In this document: piece by piece, positions 4,089-60,507 of the stretch
How the letters are laid out: the number at the start of each line of letters is the position of its first letter
How positions within the stretch are numbered: position 1 is the first letter of the stretch
NCBI GenBank assembly: GCA_951406725.2
Contig: OX597817.1
Span: 45,446,001-45,510,000 of the forward strand
Length of the DNA: 64,000 nucleotides
Reading direction: 5' to 3'
Source: Octopus vulgaris
Taxonomy: Eukaryota
Notes under the pieces: model-generated
Databases searched by the model: none
What the model was told of the DNA's origin: nothing
The model's input: the letters and a program-made list of their open reading frames with translations, nothing else
Program-made: the position numbers and the translations under genes

Positions 4089-5189
4089 ATGCCACATTAG
4101 GCCACTCAGTCACTTTGTATATATTTGTTGGTGGAAAATACGTGTAGGATACAAAAATATTGAAAACAACTGTTACTAGTAATGTCATAAGAGCTCTTTT
4201 TTTTAGAATGATATGTCACATTAATTACAAATTGCTATCTCAAAGGAATTTAAATGTTATTAGTAACATATAGAGCACGACACCTATAGCCGGGATTTGT
4301 AATAATTGTTTTTTTAGATCCTTTACACACATACACACACGCATGTGTACATACATTCATACACACACACAAACACATAAATATGTCTATCAGAATGTAT
4401 ATATGAATGCATTTATGATCTCCGTGTTGACTAATGGGAATATAATTTAAAAGTCCTCTAGCATCTGTTCAAATCTTTGTATAATTAAATTAATTCTTCG
4501 AAATTTGATCTTGTCCTTTAATAGGCAATTTCCTCCATTATAAGCAACCTATACTAGAGGAAGTGATAAAATTTTATACTTTATAATTACGTTAGCTGTA
4601 GTGTTAATTCTTACCAGTTGTCCCTTTGATAAGAAATATGGTGATGCATTTACTAATATTTTCTACTTGTTACTCTCATTGTGGTATCAAATTTACTTGC
4701 TGTTAATTGGAATCACACACGCTTTCCATTATTATGCAAGATGCAGAGAAAAGAAGTAATATTCGTTACAAGGTACAATGTGAAACCGTTGTGATTGGTA
4801 ACCAACGGTTAGAGAGTGAACATTATTCATAAAATACCTAGTTTTATATTTATTGCAAAATAGCTCTATATCCAAAATATTATCTCAAATTTCAAAGAAT
4901 ATTCTCAAAATACAACCAGAACAAATAAATCGTACAAATGTTTTCAGTTGACTGAAGATTGGGATACCCCGATATCAATGAATTACTATATACCTATATA
5001 GGTATTGAATAAAATAATGACTAATATAATGATTCTTGCGATCGCAAGGAAGATCATAAAGACCCCTGATATCTAATGATTTGTTGCTCTTTTCTTGATC
5101 CATCATCCACCTATCTGGATTCAGGAGAATTGCAGTTATATTTGCGCCTATGTTGTTTTCGAAAGCGCTGTGTCATTTCTATTAAACCC

Positions 5190-5443
5190 GATCACTCGAT
5201 GGAGAAGGGATCAGGCCGTCACCGAGCGGTGGCCTATTATCTGGTGCGAAACGCGCGGTCCATGTCGAGCGCTTTTGCGGGCGCCGACGCCGCCGATGCG
5301 TGACCCTTAGTCGAGAACAATGTCGGTCGGAGAGTTTCACTGGGTCGGTATGTCTGTCAAACGGTAACGCAGGTGTCCCAAGGTGGGCTCAGTGTGGACT
5401 GAAACCACACGTCGTGCAAAAGGGCAAAAACTCGCTCGATCTC
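5190..5443 (+). pseudogene. Degenerate 28S (LSU) rRNA fragment, 3' half of the molecule, with a GC-rich expansion segment
   Basis: gagtttcactgggtcggtatgtctgtcaaacggtaacgcaggtgtcccaagg...aagggcaaaaactcgctcgatct resembles the conserved eukaryotic LSU sequence GGGAGTTTGACTGGGGCGGTACACCTGTCAAACGGTAACGCAGGTGTCCTAAGG...AAGGGCAAAAGCTCGCTTGATCT; isolated and mismatched. Confidence 0.9.
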
Positions 5444-5949
5444 AATAAAGAAGGAAAGGGAGCGAGTCTCAAACATGCTGTTAACATTGGCCTGATACAT
5501 CCAACTGGCATTCCAGCCACCACACCAACCGAAAGTCCGTGTATTTATATACTCTATACTTACGACGAATGTGGTTGCGAATCTTTGTGAAAAGTATCTG
5601 TAGGTTTGTTGAGCGTGGGCACGTCCGTTTGGGTCTCCTAACGTCATTCCAATTTTTCCAGTAGTTTGCTGGTTCGCATGAAAAACTGAATGTGTGGAAG
5701 CCATATTTGATTGTTTTATTTTTATTGCAAAACATATATTCTCCAACAAATTGCATGTGGTGCGTATAATAAATAGACCAGACTCTTGCAAATCTGCTCC
5801 GCTTCATAATAAAATGAAATTATTTTATATGCGTCTTGGAAATGAAAATAAACACACACTTAACGAGCCCCTTCAACTTCGTTTGTCTACGGTATTCAAC
5901 AGCATCACCAACACCAACAACAACCATAATAATATTTGTAATAATATTT

Positions 5950-6330
5950 AATTCTTTCTAATATAGGTACAAGGCCTGAAATTTCGGGGTAAGGAGTAAG
6001 TCGATTACCTATCTGGAAAGGATAACATGTAAAGTCGACTTCGAAGAAATTTGAACTTAGAACGTGGCGGCGGGCGTAATACAGCTAATCATTTTGCCCG
6101 GCGTGCTAACGATTGTGCTAGCTCGCAAATTAGTAATAGCAATCCGTTCTACTATAGGTAAAAGGCCTGAAATTCTAGGAGGAGAGGCGTAGTCAATTAC
6201 ATCGACCCGAATGTTTCACTGGTGAATAATTTATCAACCTCTAAAGAATGAAAGGCAGAGTCGACCTTGGCAGAATTTGAACTCCAAACGTGAAGACAAA
6301 CGAAATGCTCGGCGTGCTAACGATTCTGCC
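5950..6330 (-). mobile_element. Two tandem degenerate SINE family A copies (tail A2): about 5950-6127 and 6142-6330
   Basis: Both carry cggcgtgctaacgatt heads and aaggcctgaaatt tails. Confidence 0.85.
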
Positions 6331-6342
6331 ATTGAACTTCCA

Positions 6343-6420
6343 ACTTGTTGTCTCTTGAGGTCTCTGGGTGAGACTTGGAGAGCCAGCTTGTACAAATGTA
6401 AAGCAAAAGTCAAACATAAA
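6343..6420 (+). mobile_element. Probable 3'-tail-only RLE (Dong-like) LINE insertion
   Basis: tgtctcttgaggtctctgggtgagacttggag followed by an A-rich run into (AAT)n; similar layout to the 3' UTRs at 1710-1750 and 26095-26140. Confidence 0.4.
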
Positions 6421-6564
6421 ATAATAATAAGGATAATAATAATGATAATGATAATAATAATACTAAAGATAATAATAATAATGATGATGATGATGATGAT
6501 GATGACGATGATGATGATGCTAATAATAATAATGATAATGATAATAATAATAAAAATAAAAATC

Positions 6565-6607
<43 letters not shown>
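6421..6607. repeat. (AAT)n/(GAT)n compound microsatellite
   Basis: Directly visible. Confidence 0.97.
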
Positions 6608-6610
<3 letters not shown>

Positions 6611-7374
6611 TAACAGTCTCCGTATAAGAACAGAGAAGGAAGAAGAGAAAAGAATGAAATGAGAAATGAATAAGAGGAGGGAAGTGGGAGGCAGTGAACA
6701 CACTAGAGAAGAAATAACTTGATAAGAAAGCAAATGAAATGAATGTAAATGCTAAAGCCTTTAAGTCATAACCGACGTGAAAAAGTAAAAGAAATACAAT
6801 GGTGTAGAGAACATGTTTCTCTTTTAGATTTTCTCCCCGGTATTGTTCTCTTTAAGACGACATTTTCTCTCATTAGTTTGCCTTCTAGATTAGTTGATTG
6901 TTAATAACGTATAAAATTATGCATTGTGTTAACACGGCGAACAATTGCCGTGGAATAAATAATGTCTACTGAGGTTTCATATTTGATAATATTCATTAAT
7001 TCAATTACGTGTGAAGTTTGTACAAGGAATGGTAATGAGAAATCTCATAAGTCAAATTATCGAATCTCAGGCTACTAATAATGTTGAAAGACATTTTCAT
7101 TGATAAACAATATATTCACGTTTTGGTTCAGTATAGCGTGATTTAAACTTTTTTCCGTTGATTCACTCTGTAGGAGTAAACAGCAAGATCTTGGCATTGA
7201 CGTCTTATAAAATAATCGTATATTGACGACTTCGATATTGACTAATGCTCACCACTGATTCATCAGATGAGATACTTGTATTTTAACTGAATATACATGT
7301 AAATTATAAGAATAACCTACTGTAAACACAAAAGCACGGGGATTATGAATATAATAGCATATTATAATGGTATA

Positions 7375-10505: not shown

Positions 10506-11042
10506 CTATACACAACAAATAAAGCGATTGCATAATAAAAAATAAAAATAAAATATCTAAAAAATTTCCTAATTCAAAAGTACTGTAATTCTTCCACTGG
10601 TGTACCAATATAATCAGAAAATGAATATCGCCAAAAGATTTTGCGACAGTCACACGAGATATGTAGTCCAAGATTATACAAATGAAAAATAGTAAAAGAG
10701 AATGAAAAATCAGTTGAATAAAACATAGAACATTCGACACAATGCCTGTATAATTGAGCATGAAAGCGGATAATATCGTTTGTATTGTATATTTATTGTC
10801 AAGAGAGAACTTATATGTAATCAGTAGATACAATTTTTCGACTGTTCAACTTTCTTCAGACAGAATATGCCAAAACAGTCATAAAAATATTTCATAAATA
10901 TATTTGAAGGAGAGAGATGTACCAATAATATAAACATTTATGTTCATACACAGAGAACTCTATGTGTACAGATATATATTCATCCGTGTAGAACAGATTC
11001 AGATACAAATTTTCGCTGGAGGTGATGTATATATATATATAT

Positions 11043-11860
<818 letters not shown>

Positions 11861-14537: not shown

Positions 14538-15499
14538 ATGTATGTATATATATATATTATATATAAATATATATATATATATGTGTGCGTGTGTGTATGT
14601 GTGTGTATCTATTTATATATATTTACTCACACACAGACACACATAGATATATGTATTGTGAATATATGCACAATGATACAGATAAAGATACATGTATATT
14701 AAATGAGAGAAAACAGAGAAAATGTAAATATACAGACGACATACGGCAGAAATGTTTCGATTGATCATTAATGTCGGACGCCTGCGTGCTCTCACGAACG
14801 CGCGTGCGCACTCTTACAGAACCACGGGCACATGTGCATGCACATACAGTACATGTATGTGTGTATATCTATGAGTGTGTACGTAGATCTATGCATTAAT
14901 GAGTCTAGACATACGCTGTAAGGACTGTTAAGTCCAGAACATGAATTGATGCTTGTCACTTGCAAAATATTGCTATCCAAATATTTCGAGCCATAACTCA
15001 TTAGGAAACCTAATTATGAGTTGTTTAAGACTGTTTTATACCAGACATACAATATTGTTAAGAAGCAGATGTAGACACAAAGAATTGGTGTAACACTTGC
15101 TGATCAATGCAATAAAAAGCTTGATAACTAATTACAGTAAGTTATATACATCTACGTCTGTAAACCCACATTCACTTGCGAATGAATCTTGTCATCAACT
15201 TTTCATCATACATAATTTCTTTTAAATATTCACCGATGTTCTTTCCTTCTGTGCTTCCGTATTTGTCTACTTCTCAGTGTGTGTATACAAACAAGGGAAC
15301 AACAAAAAGTATTTTCAGTTGTTGACTGCTATAGGTTCTTTTCATCGTTACGAATCATTTGTTTATTTTGTGAGTTTATTTAACAGTCATTACATAAAGC
15401 ATGTCTTCATCCATACGTTGTCTGATTGAATGTGGAGACGCAAGAAACTGACGTCGGCGAGGCTATGCGTCATCTGATTTTAACAGTTGTGTATATGTA

Positions 15500-16050
15500 T
15501 TGTTCTATATTTTGGAGATGAGGAATTCCGTACGATATTTCTATTTGATGGATATGTGTCCTCATCTTGTTTGTTGTCACCACAACGATTTACTCTCCAG
15601 CCTTCATCAGATCTGGTAGAATTTTGAATCCAACTCTTGGTTTTACTGATGTTATTATTATTCATTAAGGAATTGAACTCGCAATCTTGAGGTTTGTAGC
15701 CTGCGCTCCTAACCATTACGCTATATTCCCATAAGGCGGCGAGCTGGCAGAATCGTTAGCACGCCGGGCGAAATGCGTAGCCGTATTTCGTCTGCCGTTA
15801 CGTTCTGAGTTCAAGTTCCGCCGAGGTCGACTTTGCCTTTCATCCTTTCGGGGTCGATAAATTAAGTACCAGTTACGCACTGGGATCGATATAATCGACT
15901 TAATCCTCTTGTCTGTCCTTGTTTGTCCCCTCTGTGTTTAGTCCCTTGTGGATAGTAAAGAAATATATATTCCCATGGGCAATTATAGAGTGAATTTTAG
16001 TACTTATAAACGTAATATTTTTGTATCCTTCCTTAATACTGGTTCCCATT
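15500..16050 (-). mobile_element. tRNA-headed element carrying a hammerhead remnant, interrupted by a SINE A copy
   Basis: Minus strand has tRNA-like tagcgtaatggttaggagcgc...gagttcaattcc (15730-15669), then CTGATGA-A-GGCTG...CGTT (15610-15583). Confidence 0.55.
15733..15965 (+). mobile_element. SINE family A, full length, with 11-bp TSD
   Basis: TSD tatattcccat at 15722-15732 and 15966-15976. Confidence 0.97.
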
Positions 16051-16244: not shown

Positions 16245-16344
16245 CGATCTAGTTTAGATTCTTTGCCATCGAATTTGATTGCAAAAAATTCAAATTTGAT
16301 TGCAAAGCATTCAAAGTTGAGGGCAAAGAATTCAAACTAGATCG
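16245..16344. repeat. 100-bp hairpin with internal 21-bp tandem units
   Basis: cgatctagtttagattctttgcc pairs with ggcaaagaattcaaactagatcg; inner units resemble aaatttgattgcaaag.attc. Confidence 0.75.
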
Positions 16345-25559: not shown

Positions 25560-25730
25560 ATGTGTATTTTCTCTCTCTGCTTATTTCTGTGTTCCTTTTT
25601 GTTAAGAGCGTAGGCTCGAAACGTAAAAGACTCTCTCACTTCCCGAGCGTCAAACTAATGCATCTGTTTGCTGTTTATACACCCGTCTCCGCCTTTTCCA
25701 TTTTTGTTTGTTTTTGTAAATTCCAACTAT
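25560..25730 (+). mobile_element. Hammerhead-bearing element, CUGUNGA subfamily (core degenerate)
   Basis: cttt-TTGTTA-AGAGCGTAGGCTCGAAACGTA-AAAG; flanked by TA-rich arrays. Confidence 0.75.
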
Positions 25731-29780: not shown

Positions 29781-29999
29781 AACGGGAAGCTTTATAAAAA
29801 TAAACAAAAGACGAAGGCAGGTGGAATACATACAAACAATTGTATTAGTATGGCGCTCAGGAATATAAATAGAACAAGTCTTTTACGTTTCGAGCCTACG
29901 CTCTTCAACAGAAAGATACACAGAAAAGAAACACAGAAAGAAAGAAGGAGAGAAAAAAATGCGTGCAGAGGCTAGCGATTCAACATGGCGTTCTGGCGA
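29781..29999 (-). mobile_element. Hammerhead-bearing element, CUGUNGA subfamily, in (TA)n
   Basis: Colinear with 25560-25730 and 47466-47590. Confidence 0.8.
29879..29916 (-). ncRNA. Minimal type-I hammerhead fold with variant core CUGUUGA
   Basis: TCTTT-CTGTTGA-A-GAGC(gtag)GCTC-GAAA-C-GTA-AAAGA; stems I and II perfectly paired, GUA triplet. Confidence 0.7.
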
Positions 30000-30746: not shown

Positions 30747-31556
30747 ATTTCCCTTCCTTCAGGTGAAACTCTCGCGGCGTCCAACAACATCAGAGACTTG
30801 GGAGTAATTGTGGACAACAACGTAAGCTGGGCCACTCATATAAACACCAAAGTTGACATGGCCCGCAGAATGTGTTCCTGGATTCTCAGAACTTTCCAGT
30901 CGAGAGATATCCACACCATTATCCTTCTCTTCTCCACTTTTGCCCGACCCCACCTTGAATACTGTTGTCCACTGTGGTCTCCCCACACAATACAAGGTAT
31001 CATAAAAGTCGAAGCACCTCAAAGGCCAATCACAAAAAAGATAGATGGCATGACAGGCCTCGACTATTGGGGTCGACTAGAAAAGCGAAAAGCTAAAACT
31101 CTATTCTCTCCAACGTCGTCGTGAGCGCTACATCATCTGCATGATGTGGAAAATATTCCATCAGCATTGCCCAAATGATGTTGGCATCACCTTTAAGGTA
31201 CATCCAAGGCTTGGGCCCCGTGCCATCCGCCCAAAACAAAAATCGCACTCTCATCTCATAACAACAATACGGCACAATTATTTCACCTCAATTGGCCCCG
31301 CTCTCTTTAACATTACACCAAAACACATTAAAACAGAAACTGACCCTATAGGGTTCAAGAAGTCTTTGGACAAATTCCTTCAAGAAATCCCGGATAAACC
31401 CCCTACACCCGGATATGTCTCTGTAAACAATAACTCTCTACTTGAGTGGGCCATAGTGCCCAAATTCTGACTTGAAAGACTTCACCAGGTGGTGCTATTA
31501 AGTTAGACATGGCCTGGGCCAATAATGGCCGAAACCTATCAAAGTATATCAAAGTA
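30745..31556 (+). mobile_element. 5'-truncated CR1/L2-type LINE (C-terminal RT/thumb region plus 3' UTR), frameshifted
   Basis: [18 protein letters not shown]...[14 protein letters not shown]...[24 protein letters not shown]...FKKSLDKFL, stop at 31470. Frameshift from a 7-bp duplication gaaaagc (31080-31093). Tail is (tatcaaagta)x2. Confidence 0.93.
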
Positions 31557-37633: not shown

Positions 37634-38521
37634 CGAAGGGGTACCCAAACGAAATCAGAATTTTGAAGTGTTATTTTATTCACTTTGTTTAACATGTTTA
37701 CTTTTTTTATCGCTTTTAAAGAAATTCTCCAGGCGCATTTTCCACTGTTCGAAGCTGTGCTGGAACTCTTGCGAAGTGGTGCTTTTAACACCTCCTTTGT
37801 TTTTTATTTCTTCACCTCTTCCACATCTGCAAATTACGCACCACCACCATTCGTCACCAGTGATGACCTTCCAAAAAAGGTCCGGATCAACTTCCAACCT
37901 TACTTTTAATTCACAAAACGCATTCAGTCGTGACTGATTTTGATCTTCTGTGAGCAAGCGAGGCACACATTTTGCCGCAACACTATTCATTCGCAATTGC
38001 TCGCTTAAAATTGTTTGGCAGGAGCACCAGAACACATCAGTTACATCAACAATTTCATCAAATGTTCCGGAACAGTCCTGCAAGATCAGTTCATTTATTT
38101 TCATGATGTTTTCATTCGTTCTGGTGGTCGACGCTCGTTCTCAACGTAGTCGGTCTCCAGACGACAAGTGACCATTCCTAAAGCGTGGAAGCCACATATA
38201 AACATGTGTTTTCCTTATGACAACATTCTTGTAAGTTGTTTCAAGTATGACAACCATTTTGGCCGCTATTGTCCCTAGCAGAAAACAGAATTTCAGGAAA
38301 GCACGCTATTTCTTCGTTTAATCCATCGCAAAACTCGACGAACAGGAGAAAAACACTGCAAAAACAAAGATGCATCACATTACAGTACGACCCAATAGAG
38401 GATGCTGGTCGACAGACTGATACCTGAGGGTTGCATCAAGTGTCTTCTGTCTGTGGAAGTCTGAACTACAACGGGTTTGCTCCACAGAGAATGTTTCCGG
38501 TTACTTTTAGGTACCTAGTTG
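37634..38521 (-). mobile_element. Decayed, internally deleted mariner-type transposon (different subfamily)
   Basis: AAKCVPRLLTEDQ...KVITGDEWW (WVPxxL and TGDE motifs), then FEQWKMRL; degenerate TIRs ta-cgaaggggtacccaaa / tttaggtacctagttg-ta. Confidence 0.85.
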
Positions 38522-41710: not shown

Positions 41711-42660
41711 ATTTTGTATAACCTCGCAAGCCCTGGCATGACATTTATATATTTCGATGTCGTTTTGTCATACTCAAAATATCAATGGCTATAAATTCTA
41801 CCTTCATATCTTGTTCTTTCTACTCGAACAGCTTTGTTACATTCTTTCGTGTCATAATTTGGAGTTGCCTGTCGAATGCATATCTTTTTCTTTTAGCTTT
41901 CTTTGTAAAATCCGAGCAGTCCTATTTGACTTGCATGTCAGTTTGGACAAACACGAGTCAAAGTATTACTTCTATGCCCTTGCTAAAAATCGGATTTTCT
42001 GCGCGCTTTTACCAATTATTTTTAGTTCATATATGGAAGCTTCTTCCGACTATTGAGAGGATATAACTACTTATTCGGTCGTGCCTAAAGACATATTCTG
42101 GGTTGCTGGAAATTAAGTATTGACTTGTTTTTATGGTGATTGCATAATCTGAAGTAGGTTTTAGCCTTTATATTTTTCTTTTTCTGATATTTTTTCTCTT
42201 AGCTTTTTATACAGTAATATCCATATGATCCCTTCCTATCATGGAATAAAATTGAATATGGAAACAATTTCGTTGCTATTTATACCTTAGCATATTTATA
42301 AGAAACCTTTCATATTACTTCTCTGCTCAGTTTTATCATATATTCTTTTTTTGTTGGATTCTTCATTCCTAAAACCGTTCCCTCTGTGTTATTATCGTAT
42401 GTATTTATAATCCGTCTACTTTCCTTACGGTTATTCTGGATACGCAATAGCTTGTACATCTCTCATCAAGTACATCTCTCATATTCGGTTATGTCTGTTC
42501 GTCTGTGGAAGACAGTAGTAATACAGAGCTAAGTGGCAGACAAAGAAAAGAAATAGAGAAATCGGTTTTGCGGAAATAGGTTACAATCAGCAGACAGAGA
42601 AAGGAAATAAGGTATACTATACAGACAGAAGTATGTAGAATATATATGGGGCATACGAGG

Positions 42661-43209
42661 AGAAGTCCAGAGAGCAGAAAATGCCATTATATATGGCCTT
42701 CATTGATCTGACAAAGGCATTTGACTCGGTAAGTAGAAAAGGCCTCTTCCTCCTGCTCCAAAAAATCGGATGTCCACCAAAGCTGCTGAGGATCATACTC
42801 TACGGAGAGCTTGCTAGGGGTACTAGGTCTGTGGGAAGACCGTTCTTACGTTACAATGATGTTTGCAAAAGGGACATGGAGGCCTGCAACATCAATATTA
42901 GCAATTGGGAAGCAGTTGCCAGCAACTGTGGAGATTGGCGACGTACCGTTAAAGAGGGGGAATACAAAGGAGTGGAAGAGGGAGAGAGGAGAAATGGAAA
43001 GACAAGAAAAGACGTCAACAAGAAACTATGACATTACAACCAGCCGGGAACAGTCTTCGCTACTTTTGCGGTACCTGCCAGAGGGAGTGTCTGTCCAGGA
43101 TAGGACTGCACAGCCACAGCAGGAAATGTATCAGGACATGAAATGTAAAAGCCGGACTAGACTATTTATGCACAACTCCATTGTCTCCCGAGACAAAAAG
43201 GATGCCAAC
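42661..43209 (+). mobile_element. RTE-clade LINE remnant, 5'-truncated and internally deleted, with 9-bp TSD
   Basis: PLYMAFIDLTKAFDSVSRKGLFLLLQKIGCPPKL fused to LYGELARGTRSVGRPFLRYNDVCKRDM, then CGTCQRECLSRIGLHSH; TSD catacgagg at 42652-42660 and 43210-43218. Confidence 0.93.
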
Positions 43210-47465: not shown

Positions 47466-47628
47466 GAGTCGCCATTGTTAGCCACTACACACATTTTTTC
47501 TCCTTGTTTCTCTCCTAGATTTTTCTCTGTCCCTTTCTGTAGAAGAGCGTAGGCTCGAAACGAAAAATACTTTTTCTTTTCCTGAGCGTACATACATCCA
47601 TGCACACATAGTAATATAGATACATAGA

Positions 47629-48750: not shown

Positions 48751-49433
48751 ATTCACTTTAGTGATTCACTAAATGATCCATACATTTTTTATGGAAAATA
48801 CATATACTCTGACGATAGATTAAGCCCGGAAATAGTCGAACGATCAGTTTCAACTAATAGCGTAAGAAAATAGTCGAAACTGAAACGTTCAGTACAGCGC
48901 ATTCTTGACTCGGTGGTTTTAGGGGAATACAACCTCTGTGAGTATATTTGTATAAAATTATGGGCTTTTACTATAGCATTAGTTAATCTTAAACCCTTAT
49001 TTCCAGCAGTGTAGGTCTCTTGATGCTTTTAGACGCATTTAGTGACAATTATAATTTCCCTGGCTGTTTATAGTAATTTATGCACACACACACACACACG
49101 TACACAGACATGTAATCATTAAACTTTGTTTAAATCTGAACTCATACGTTCAAATTATTTATTATTTAGAAACAGAGATCTCAAGATTTTCTGCGATTTT
49201 TTGTTGACCATGTTCACTTTCAGAATGATCCAAAATACGGCCTCTTTAAAATTCGGACAGTTCTAAGGTTTCTTTTGTGGGTGGCTTGATTAAATAGTCA
49301 CATATTGAACCTAAAACATTAAAAAATGTCAGTTAATGAAAAATATAAATCTTTAAAAGTACGAACAAACATAAACCGATGCCTGATGCGGTGTCTATTT
49401 ACCTTTGTCTTGTCTATTTATATATACTTGTGT

Positions 49434-53519: not shown

Positions 53520-54920
53520 TTTTACTCCCTGTATAAAGTTTTACGGATTTTGCAGTTCCACTGATGGATTGGATCTGGAGTCCTCAGATGAACTTTCTTT
53601 TTCTGGTTTTGAGAAGCCTAATTTCTCAAGATTCGTATTTAGGCAGTGATTTACATATGTCAGAGCCCCAATAATTAGTGGTGTAAACCTGAAATTATAA
53701 TCTAAATAGAGTAACTGCAGATTTCGCAGTTCAGTGTAGGTGTTCTCTTTTTCACTGATCTTCAGCTTTATGTTAACATCCGCTGGGCAGCCAATTTCCA
53801 CAACTGTACACAGTTTCACTTCCCTATCACAAATCATTATTACAGGTCTGTTGTGCTTACATTTTATTGAGGCTTTCACTGGGATGTTCTACCAGTATTC
53901 TTTTCTAATACAAGTGGATATGGCTTCTACCATATTGTGGGTTTTTATTTCTTTGTCCGCGGGTTTTCCTTCCGGCGTATGAATACTGACGCTACAAACA
54001 CATTCTGGGCCACTGTTTTATTGAATGCAGAGAGATACTAGGCCAATTTTATTTTGCTGTAATATTCTTGAATATGTATGTATGCATGTATGCGTACATA
54101 TAAATATAATCCATGCCGATAGAAAAAATTATAGAGTGCCCTAGTTTTAACATCATGACTATCCTATAGATTATACTGTGATGATATTTTCGGACAACTG
54201 CTTATCATGTAGATAATATCTTAGGTGTTAATTCCACAAAGTTTGCATCGTTTGTCACCTTTAAATGCTTTTCTTGCATCTCTATCCATTTTGTAGCTCA
54301 GGTACTTGGTTGATATTTCCTCTTCCTGGATTGCAAACGCAGTAATCCGGCTATTGTTCCATCATAGACTGCTTTGATGATCAATGTTACTATCATCTCG
54401 GGGCATTCTACTAAAATATCAATGCATAGTTTTCTACTCATATATGCTCATCGTTACATCTGATGTCACATTTCGGTAGAGACGTGCGACTTCTTTAGAC
54501 ATGTATTTAACATTATCAGAGAAGGAATACTGCTCAAGGAGCTGCCTTCCACTTCTTAGGATGTTATCAGCCTCACGCATGCGAACTTTTCAATGGTTGT
54601 ACTTCGACAATTGGTGGTTAAAATACGTTGCCGAATGGATATGATACGACATTCAAAGGCATTTTAGATCGATGTTAAGCCTATACCGCCTTGTTTTCGT
54701 TTTAGGTAGATGCGATCTATATCACTGTTTATGAGGAAATGAAATTTTGTTTGCTTTTTAGTATTTTACAGGTTTTCACATCAATGGTTCGGATCCCATC
54801 AAGAGTCCAATCAAGCAGCCCAAATGTTCGTATGATTACTTACACTGCAAACACTTTCTGAGCCACTTTGTTTTTGAATACAGATATGAGGTCCAAATTT
54901 TCTTTATTTGCATGTAATAT
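53520..54920 (-). mobile_element. Decayed R4/Dong-type (RLE) LINE: RT thumb, CCHC knuckle and endonuclease
   Basis: NSDIDRIYLKRKQGGIGL, FAIQEEEISTKYL, CKLCG..MISSCPK, HNRPVIMICDREVKLCTVVEIGCPADVN...PLIIGAL; several stops and frameshifts. Confidence 0.88.
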
Positions 54921-60372: not shown

Positions 60373-60452
60373 TATAGTTCATCGAAACATGAAAACAAAT
60401 AGAAAACACAACGCGAGGACGTGGAACAAGTATACTGTTATTGGAGTTCAGG

Positions 60453-60454
<2 letters not shown>
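60373..60454 (-). mobile_element. Partial copy of the 11043-11232 element, lacking the hammerhead
   Basis: aacgcgaggacgtggaacaagtata..ttattgg..tcaggaa matches the reverse complement of 11144-11228; TA flanks. Confidence 0.8.

Positions 60455-60507
<53 letters not shown>

Follow-up and report, generated by a model that had tools for sequence, protein, structure and literature searches.

A decayed octopus repeat joining a tRNA-like head to the remnant of a minimal hammerhead motif

Described systems and the layout of the octopus element

The described repeats closest in layout to the element reported here are Sm-alpha and Sj-alpha of Schistosoma, which occur in high copy number and in which a tRNA-derived Pol III promoter is followed by a type I hammerhead (PMC2770079, PMC8490949, PMC6765202; literature statements here and below refer to the accessible sections of the reports cited). 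The octopus element lies on the minus strand of a 64-kb stretch of Octopus vulgaris DNA, the whole of which was analysed and is called the window, and an earlier note on this DNA had likened it to Sm-alpha. The comparison holds for the layout, seen in the window copy and in one other copy in each of two sequencing runs, but not for the type of hammerhead. Sm-alpha has a canonical hammerhead with demonstrated cleavage and is often tandem, whereas the octopus family has a minimal motif of the Penelope-like element (PLE) type, is a monomer in the window and has ends that look PLE-like; the 6-bp helix I, 4-bp helix II and capped helix III of the canonical form are lacking in the octopus family. 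Because the hammerhead types differ, and the likeness is one of layout only and not of sequence homology, we have not filed the octopus family as a member of Sm-alpha.

The minimal hammerheads of PLE pseudo-LTRs share with the octopus family the core, the extra base, the G-C closing pair, the palindrome and a short stem I (PMC4209133; PMC11167929), as well as a position near the 3' end and AT-rich flanks (PMC11167929), and the two classes of ends in the octopus family may correspond to the optional tail of these elements; in contrast to PLEs, the octopus element has no ORF and no pair of pseudo-LTRs, and carries a tRNA-like head upstream. Animal non-LTR retrozymes are likewise short, non-coding type I hammerhead repeats (PMC7229834; bioRxiv 10.64898/2026.07.22.740005), and are argued to be non-autonomous PLE derivatives or passengers, without a tRNA promoter (bioRxiv 10.64898/2026.07.22.740005), but they are defined as tandem repeats that yield circular RNAs. 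The words 'tRNA' and 'promoter' do not occur in the 2026 retrozyme preprint, nor do 'octopus', 'SINE' and 'Pol III' in PMC7229834. Helenus, a group of non-autonomous LTR elements, combines a tRNA-derived promoter with mobilisation by a non-LINE route (Kojima 2024, PMC10886601). It differs in having LTRs, a PBS, a PPT and TSDs of 4-5 bp, none of which is seen in the octopus element. The octopus retroposons OK, OR1 and OR2 were reportedly described as tRNA-derived by Ohshima and Okada in 1994; they resemble the element in this derivation, OR2 is a CORE-SINE, and the window family may be identical to one of the three.

No octopus hammerhead repeat and no PLE-mobilised tRNA SINE was found in the papers searched, and 'ribozyme' does not occur in the accessible text of two octopus repeat papers (PMC13282606, PMC8967140); the family may be catalogued already, under a SINE or Penelope name, in repeat libraries such as Repbase, Dfam or SINEBase. 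We regard the Sm-alpha layout with a minimal PLE-type hammerhead, which was not found in that literature, as a new variant.

The hammerhead motif in the window copy and in the family

The element in the window is a dead member of a high-copy repeat family of octopus, about 240 nt long (Table 1). The family is short, non-coding and dispersed, with many copies as judged from contig depth and mixed flanks, and the interest lies in the family, the dead window copy being of none alone. All of the motifs described in the earlier note are present on the minus strand at the positions given there, although the AAT run and the CTGATGA that it had placed in succession, both of them present, are separated by a linker of 40 nt. 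We place the 5' end of the decayed copy, provisionally, at tRNA position 1, and at the other side the depth in contigs of public runs drops to single-copy level below about 15484-15501. The window copy is a monomer with no tandem neighbour, its hammerhead and 3' part do not recur elsewhere in the 64-kb window, and no TSD of at least 7 nt flanks this one old copy, the longest flank-to-flank match being 6 nt.

Table 1. Positions of the parts of the element and of the neighbouring SINE A copy within the 64,000-nucleotide window.
Feature	Positions	Strand	Basis
Decayed copy as a whole (from the tRNA-like head to the tail)	15501..15730	-	contig depth and piece ends
tRNA-like head, type 2 Pol III promoter layout	15669..15730	-	box scan, head alignment, multi-copy depth
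A box TAGCGTAATGG	15713..15723	-	fits TRGCNNARYGG
B box GTTCAATTC	15670..15678	-	45 nt after A-box start
Short AAT run	15651..15662	-	sequence; linked to 3' part in other contigs
Linker, 40 nt, strongly decayed; its end is the 5' strand of stem I	15611..15650	-	contig tables; reading of P0008 and P0009
Hammerhead core CUGAUGA, extra A, 5' arm of stem II (GGCUG)	15598..15610	-	sequence; minimal hammerhead consensus (PMC4209133)
9-nt deletion site (stem II 3' arm and GAAA)	15587..15588	-	loose ends of all four runs; P0008 and P0009 longer by 3 codons
CG palindrome, U-H cut site (after 15584) and stem I 3' strand	15579..15587	-	sequence and consensus
3' hairpin, 9-bp stem (15567-15559 with 15524-15516), A-rich loop	15516..15567	-	fold z; loose ends before 15536 and 15543
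Optional 3' tail, in the window copy and a minority of copies	15501..15525	-	depth; also read in P0008
SINE A copy, head-to-head with the element, likely later insertion	15733..15965	+	17 further matches in window; TSD; orthologous contig
SINE A TSD, copy overlapping the tRNA-like head	15722..15732	.	repeat family D12, 100% identity
SINE A TSD, outer copy	15966..15976	.	repeat family D12, 100% identity

Other copies were sampled by way of the contigs of four of 24 public runs, representing organisms A, B (run X4) and D together with a possible RNA run of A (X23), with the stretch 15250-15760 at 80% likeness; X8 was the only one used of the runs with small word shares. Contig depth is not copy number, contigs in general show no starts, strand or cuts, and those of X23 show presence only.

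In the window copy the CUGANGA core with one extra base before stem II is present at 15610-15603 and CG-UU occupies 15587-15584, while CAGCC-GAAA is absent and with it essential core bases. Stem I has CAGAT as its 5' strand and is reduced to 2 bp. Without GAAA, one arm of stem II and the greater part of stem I, this copy cannot form the core. The family differs in each of these respects. In all four runs the loose ends behind 15587 open with the reverse complement of CAGCC-GAAA and then rejoin the window sequence (52, 49, 85 and 8 contigs among the loose-end rows listed, with agreement of 0.69-0.9), and several of 32 listed pieces span the deletion site with 11-12 gap letters. In other copies the letters beyond 15610 give GACAC for the corresponding strand, which pairs with GUG or GUGUU after the cut, variants at 15580 giving a stem of 3-5 bp. 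The prediction that other copies would restore the GGCTG/CAGCC stem, GAAAC and stem I thus holds in four of four sequencing runs, and bears out the reading of the locus as a decayed copy of a family, here one of high copy number.

The same nine nucleotides are reflected in protein annotations. The open frame of the element has only two convincing relatives, P0008 (Octopus bimaculoides) and P0009 (Octopus sinensis), each an annotation of another copy of the family. Both have three extra codons at the deletion site and read T-P-D/E where the 5' strand of stem I lies; the T-P-E-E of P0009 implies that the free core position has changed. A first protein search with the open frame gave no candidate, and of the eight matches of a later one, seven are likely due to chance, being to long or repetitive proteins (two of the seven were inspected), which left P0008. 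As a separate observation, residues 1-36 of P0009 (LOC115224785 isoform X2) derive from a family copy and stand ahead of a signal-peptide-like stretch in a cysteine-rich membrane protein; they represent either an exonised repeat in the 5' UTR or an annotation error.

The family motif is that of a complete PLE-type minimal type I hammerhead and fits the consensus CUGANGAH-G..C-GAAAN-palindrome-NUH (Cervera and de la Pena 2014, PMC4209133). The G10.1-C11.1 closing pair followed by GAAA is found in the family (four of four runs, two of two proteins) and is missing from the window copy, and the palindromic 15.2-16.2 pair, the U-H site and the short stem I are all present in the family. The CAC/GUG stem I and CG-UU are shared with a Lottia motif (PMC4209133 supplement). 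The stem II of the octopus PLE Hydra-1_Obim differs from that of the family. Rfam gave no match for the element, and the family motifs do not appear in the Octopus PLE consensus sequences supplied by Craig et al., in a text whose line breaks can hide matches.

A search with the restored hammerhead pattern returned 48 metagenome loci (L001-L048), none of them homologous to the window family, and pattern scans of viral and prokaryote collections gave no confirmed occurrence. The 48 loci represent 35 distinct contexts for a hammerhead with the GGCUG/CAGCC stem II, and two of them (L003 and L022) have an inverted partial copy just upstream, as in PLE insertions. Four of them (L005, L012, L022 and L024) have tRNA-like heads downstream of the hammerhead, which we rejected as support; the heads look like neighbouring SINEs, because three represent one locus and its 84%-identical counterpart.

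The 3' end of the element and its probable mobilisation

The 3' hairpin has a fold z of -3.83 (0 of 200 shuffles as stable) for 15500-15575, and of -2.05 (7 of 200) for the wider stretch 15495-15590; the lack of listed variants in its arms is not significant, with a chance of about 0.18 by our own estimate. Two classes of ends are apparent, about 20-35 nt apart, as judged from depth, loose ends and 32 of 38,030 pieces. First, many copies end inside the hairpin loop. In the three large runs the depth is 223,000-1,980,000 at 15538-15591, 20,000-41,000 at 15502-15537 and 49-150 in the flank beyond, with that of the tail 5- to 35-fold below the bin 15538-15555. Among the loose-end rows listed, 156, 198, 241 and 31 contigs part from the window sequence before 15536 (agreement 0.5-0.68). 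In the 30-letter consensus of these ends the 9-bp repeat goes on for 10-20 letters and is followed by AT-rich sequence of low agreement, without the 3' stem arm. Secondly, 19 of the 32 pieces listed, from a list that favours long pieces, end at 15498-15506, 11 of them sharply at 15501.

These ends can be set beside the optional tail of 30-40 bp in the Poseidon PLE of anole, where reverse transcription starts inside the RNA at an AC-rich stem-loop, two starts define the tail, and targets are AT-rich (PMC11167929). By our own subtraction from that report, the stem-loop start lies 85-92 nt past the cut; the octopus family ends about 60-90 nt past the cut site, with the far end of the window copy at 83 nt, which puts the hammerhead near the 3' end. 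The position is like that in other PLEs, for example Hydra-1_Obim with its hammerhead at 2403 of 2507 (supplement of PMC8557442). By this analogy the 3' end would look like a PLE end. The tail itself looks integral, because the 9-bp repeats lie inside the loop and the sequence beyond them pairs over 9 bp with upstream sequence.

We consider it probable that the family is a SINE-like, Pol III-transcribed, non-autonomous passenger of a PLE and not of LINEs, and infer PLE mobilisation from the layout. The presence of the 9 nt in other copies, the fit to the consensus, the two end classes, the missing TSD and a second copy with a head count in favour of this explanation; the missing partner, the thin head linkage, the low head depth, the L2-like repeats and the backward joints (see below) count against it. 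The narrower proposal, of an octopus 'PLE-SINE' in which a tRNA promoter is fused to a hammerhead-bearing PLE 3' end and which reaches very high copy number through internal priming by the PLE protein, we put forward tentatively, at slightly less than even chances. Annotated PLEs account for 6.83% of O. vulgaris DNA and include families that were active recently. By eye, none of the open frames of the 64-kb window could be recognised as a PLE ORF, and neither these frames nor the Octopus PLE consensus supplement yielded an autonomous partner.

In such a passenger, transcription by Pol III would run from the head on through the hammerhead, and the RT/GIY-YIG protein of a PLE would bind the PLE-derived 3' part and nick AT-rich DNA, with reverse transcription starting inside the RNA at the hairpin and producing both kinds of ends. 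The hammerhead itself probably travels as part of the captured PLE 3' end. Efficient cutting would strip off the promoter, as has been noted for Sm-alpha (PMC6765202) and for SINEs in general (PMC5786205), but the minimal hammerhead tested did not cleave as a monomer (PMC4209133), and the Poseidon hammerhead requires protein, although insertion in vitro can do without this ribozyme (PMC11167929). If the octopus motif likewise cut only as a dimer or with the help of protein, uncut, promoter-bearing RNA would be copied, and a minimal hammerhead that is silent as a monomer would avoid the loss of the promoter. The results for these two hammerheads make it doubtful, by analogy, that single copies are self-cleaving, as the earlier note had proposed for the family.

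The principal alternative is an ordinary LINE-mobilised tRNA SINE that has captured a hammerhead, with the 9-bp repeats as a LINE-type tail. A 3' stem-loop with short repeats is an L2-type signature, UnaL2 ending in TGTAA repeats (PMC3747384), and RTE-like and CR1/L2-like open frames are present in the window, as judged by eye. However, the repeats lie within the hairpin loop, the tail beyond them looks integral, there is a second sharp end at 15501, the element copy lacks a TSD whereas SINE A has one, and the hammerhead is of the PLE type, and we consider LINE mobilisation unlikely.

A passenger of PLEs would have several consequences. SINEs are defined as passengers of LINEs, and a tRNA-headed element carried by PLEs would widen this rule as Helenus did for LTR elements, adding a third kind of Pol III parasite to the LINE-dependent SINEs and the LTR-dependent TRIMs. 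The need of a PLE for an upstream tandem promoter would be solved, every uncut monomer being a possible source, and the family would offer a model for how Sm-alpha moves and a natural 240-nt minimal substrate for PLE insertion. Because efficient cutting would remove its promoter, the element would also test the purpose of PLE hammerheads. Octopus genomes, known for their SINE expansions, would hold a large set of ribozyme motifs unmentioned in repeat annotations.

The tRNA-like head, its linkage to the hammerhead and neighbouring repeats

The earlier note had described Pol III-type A and B boxes on the minus strand, and these are confirmed at the exact spacing of a tRNA, the 45 nt between them corresponding to the distance from tRNA position 8 to 53. 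This is the only A/B box pair at tRNA spacing on either strand of the 64 kb (200 block shuffles gave a mean of 0.11 and a maximum of 2), in a scan that used the standard consensus but was designed after the site was known. The head, which may resemble tRNA-Arg, can be aligned with the head of SINE A and five further SINE-like heads in the window, giving 11 invariant columns in the seven rows. It is too decayed for ARAGORN or Rfam, neither of which finds a match, and a cloverleaf fold is unsupported (fold z of -0.9 and -1.3); the head is therefore called tRNA-like by its boxes and alignment and not by a cloverleaf. No TTTT occurs from 15730 to 15308, which counts for little, as 426 of 2296 control windows (18.6%) also lack one. 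The depth of the head is 3,000-26,000 in the three large runs compared to 0-150 in the flank, and part of it may come from the heads of other SINEs.

That the tRNA part and the CTGATGA part belong together in other copies, as the earlier note had supposed, is suggested by a single joint, from 15614 to 15669, which links the head (56 letters on its side) to the hammerhead and tail and is found in one contig each of X4 and X23, that is, in two of the four runs. The X23 contig (record 11) is another copy, since 16 of its letters differ from the window; the two contigs may represent one locus. The AAT run is also joined to the 3' part in other contigs, by joints to 15641/15642 in three of four runs.

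It is less likely again that what is abundant is a solo PLE 3' end without a head, the tRNA head being part of a minor composite subfamily, or a neighbour. In the three large runs the head depth is about 20-500 times below that of the 3' part, a difference that could stem from mapping or from a majority of copies without heads; few joints span the head, both protein matches begin in the linker, and other animals commonly have solo hammerhead remnants with this stem II in their DNA (the 48 loci above). The depth cannot give the headed share, however, because it drops as far, to 4,200-7,100, over the 5' half of the hammerhead, whose attachment is plain; moreover, the same order is found in an independent copy, three of four runs have joints between the 3' part and the AAT run and linker, and spanning contigs would be expected to be rare where contigs break inside young repeats.

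The least likely of the alternatives is an Sm-alpha-like or non-LTR retrozyme, with tandem arrays, cleavage as a dimer, circular RNA and rolling-circle copying, and with monomers as dead ends: backward joints suggest that some copies are tandem, the AACGUU palindrome permits a dimeric helix III and the route is that of Sm-alpha (PMC6765202), but the window copy is a monomer, tandem joints are a very small share of the depth with the clearest unit headless, and ends cluster at two places downstream of the cut and not at the cut itself. The backward joints run from 15609/15610 to 15551 in run X2 (depth 966 and 557), with one each in X8. Those of X2, with a summed depth of about 1,500, describe a head-to-tail unit of about 75 nt that comprises the hammerhead part only, perhaps a very short retrozyme-like array.

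The SINE A copy beside the head was described in the earlier note as a later insertion, and this is likely from its TSD and from a contig of organism B that ends its match at 15732. The TSD is an exact 11 bp as proposed, but overlaps the head instead of abutting it, covering tRNA positions -2 to +9 and thus the first two bases of the A box. The orthologous contig (X4, record 24) matches 15563-15732 with one difference and no gap; the match stops exactly at 15732 and the remaining 83 letters do not continue into SINE A, which points to an empty site in organism B. As the contig has no gap at the deletion site, organism B shares the 9-nt loss, and as it also does not run on into SINE A, either the loss is older than the insertion or the insertion is polymorphic.

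Other repeats in the window were noted in passing. The earlier note had compared the hammerhead remnant with one at 11096; the CTGATGA-A-GGCTG of the remnant is confirmed at 15610-15598, but the 11096 hammerhead belongs to a different family, and we rejected it as a member of the element's own family in the absence of any sequence match between the two. This second, unrelated hammerhead-like family is present at 11041-11179 (+), 29838-29954 (-), 47501-47594 (+), 25603-25657 (+) and 60419-60455 (-), with several copies beside (TA)n runs and no tRNA head seen. Four copies cover the core, which reads CUGACGA in one, has U for the conserved A in two (CUGUUGA and CUGUAGA) and is more decayed in the fourth; three of the four have GAGC/GCUC as stem II. 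A further decayed hammerhead element may lie at 48809-48890 (+), where CTGACGA precedes a duplicated GAAATAGTCGAA motif that ends in GAAAC. Frames at 30800-31467, 37679-38140, 42639-43028 and 53544-53888 read, by eye, like fragments of CR1/L2, mariner, RTE and R2/Dong type, and an imperfect palindrome of 21-bp repeats at 16245-16344, with 38-nt arms of 84% complementarity, is perhaps a MITE or Helitron-type remnant.
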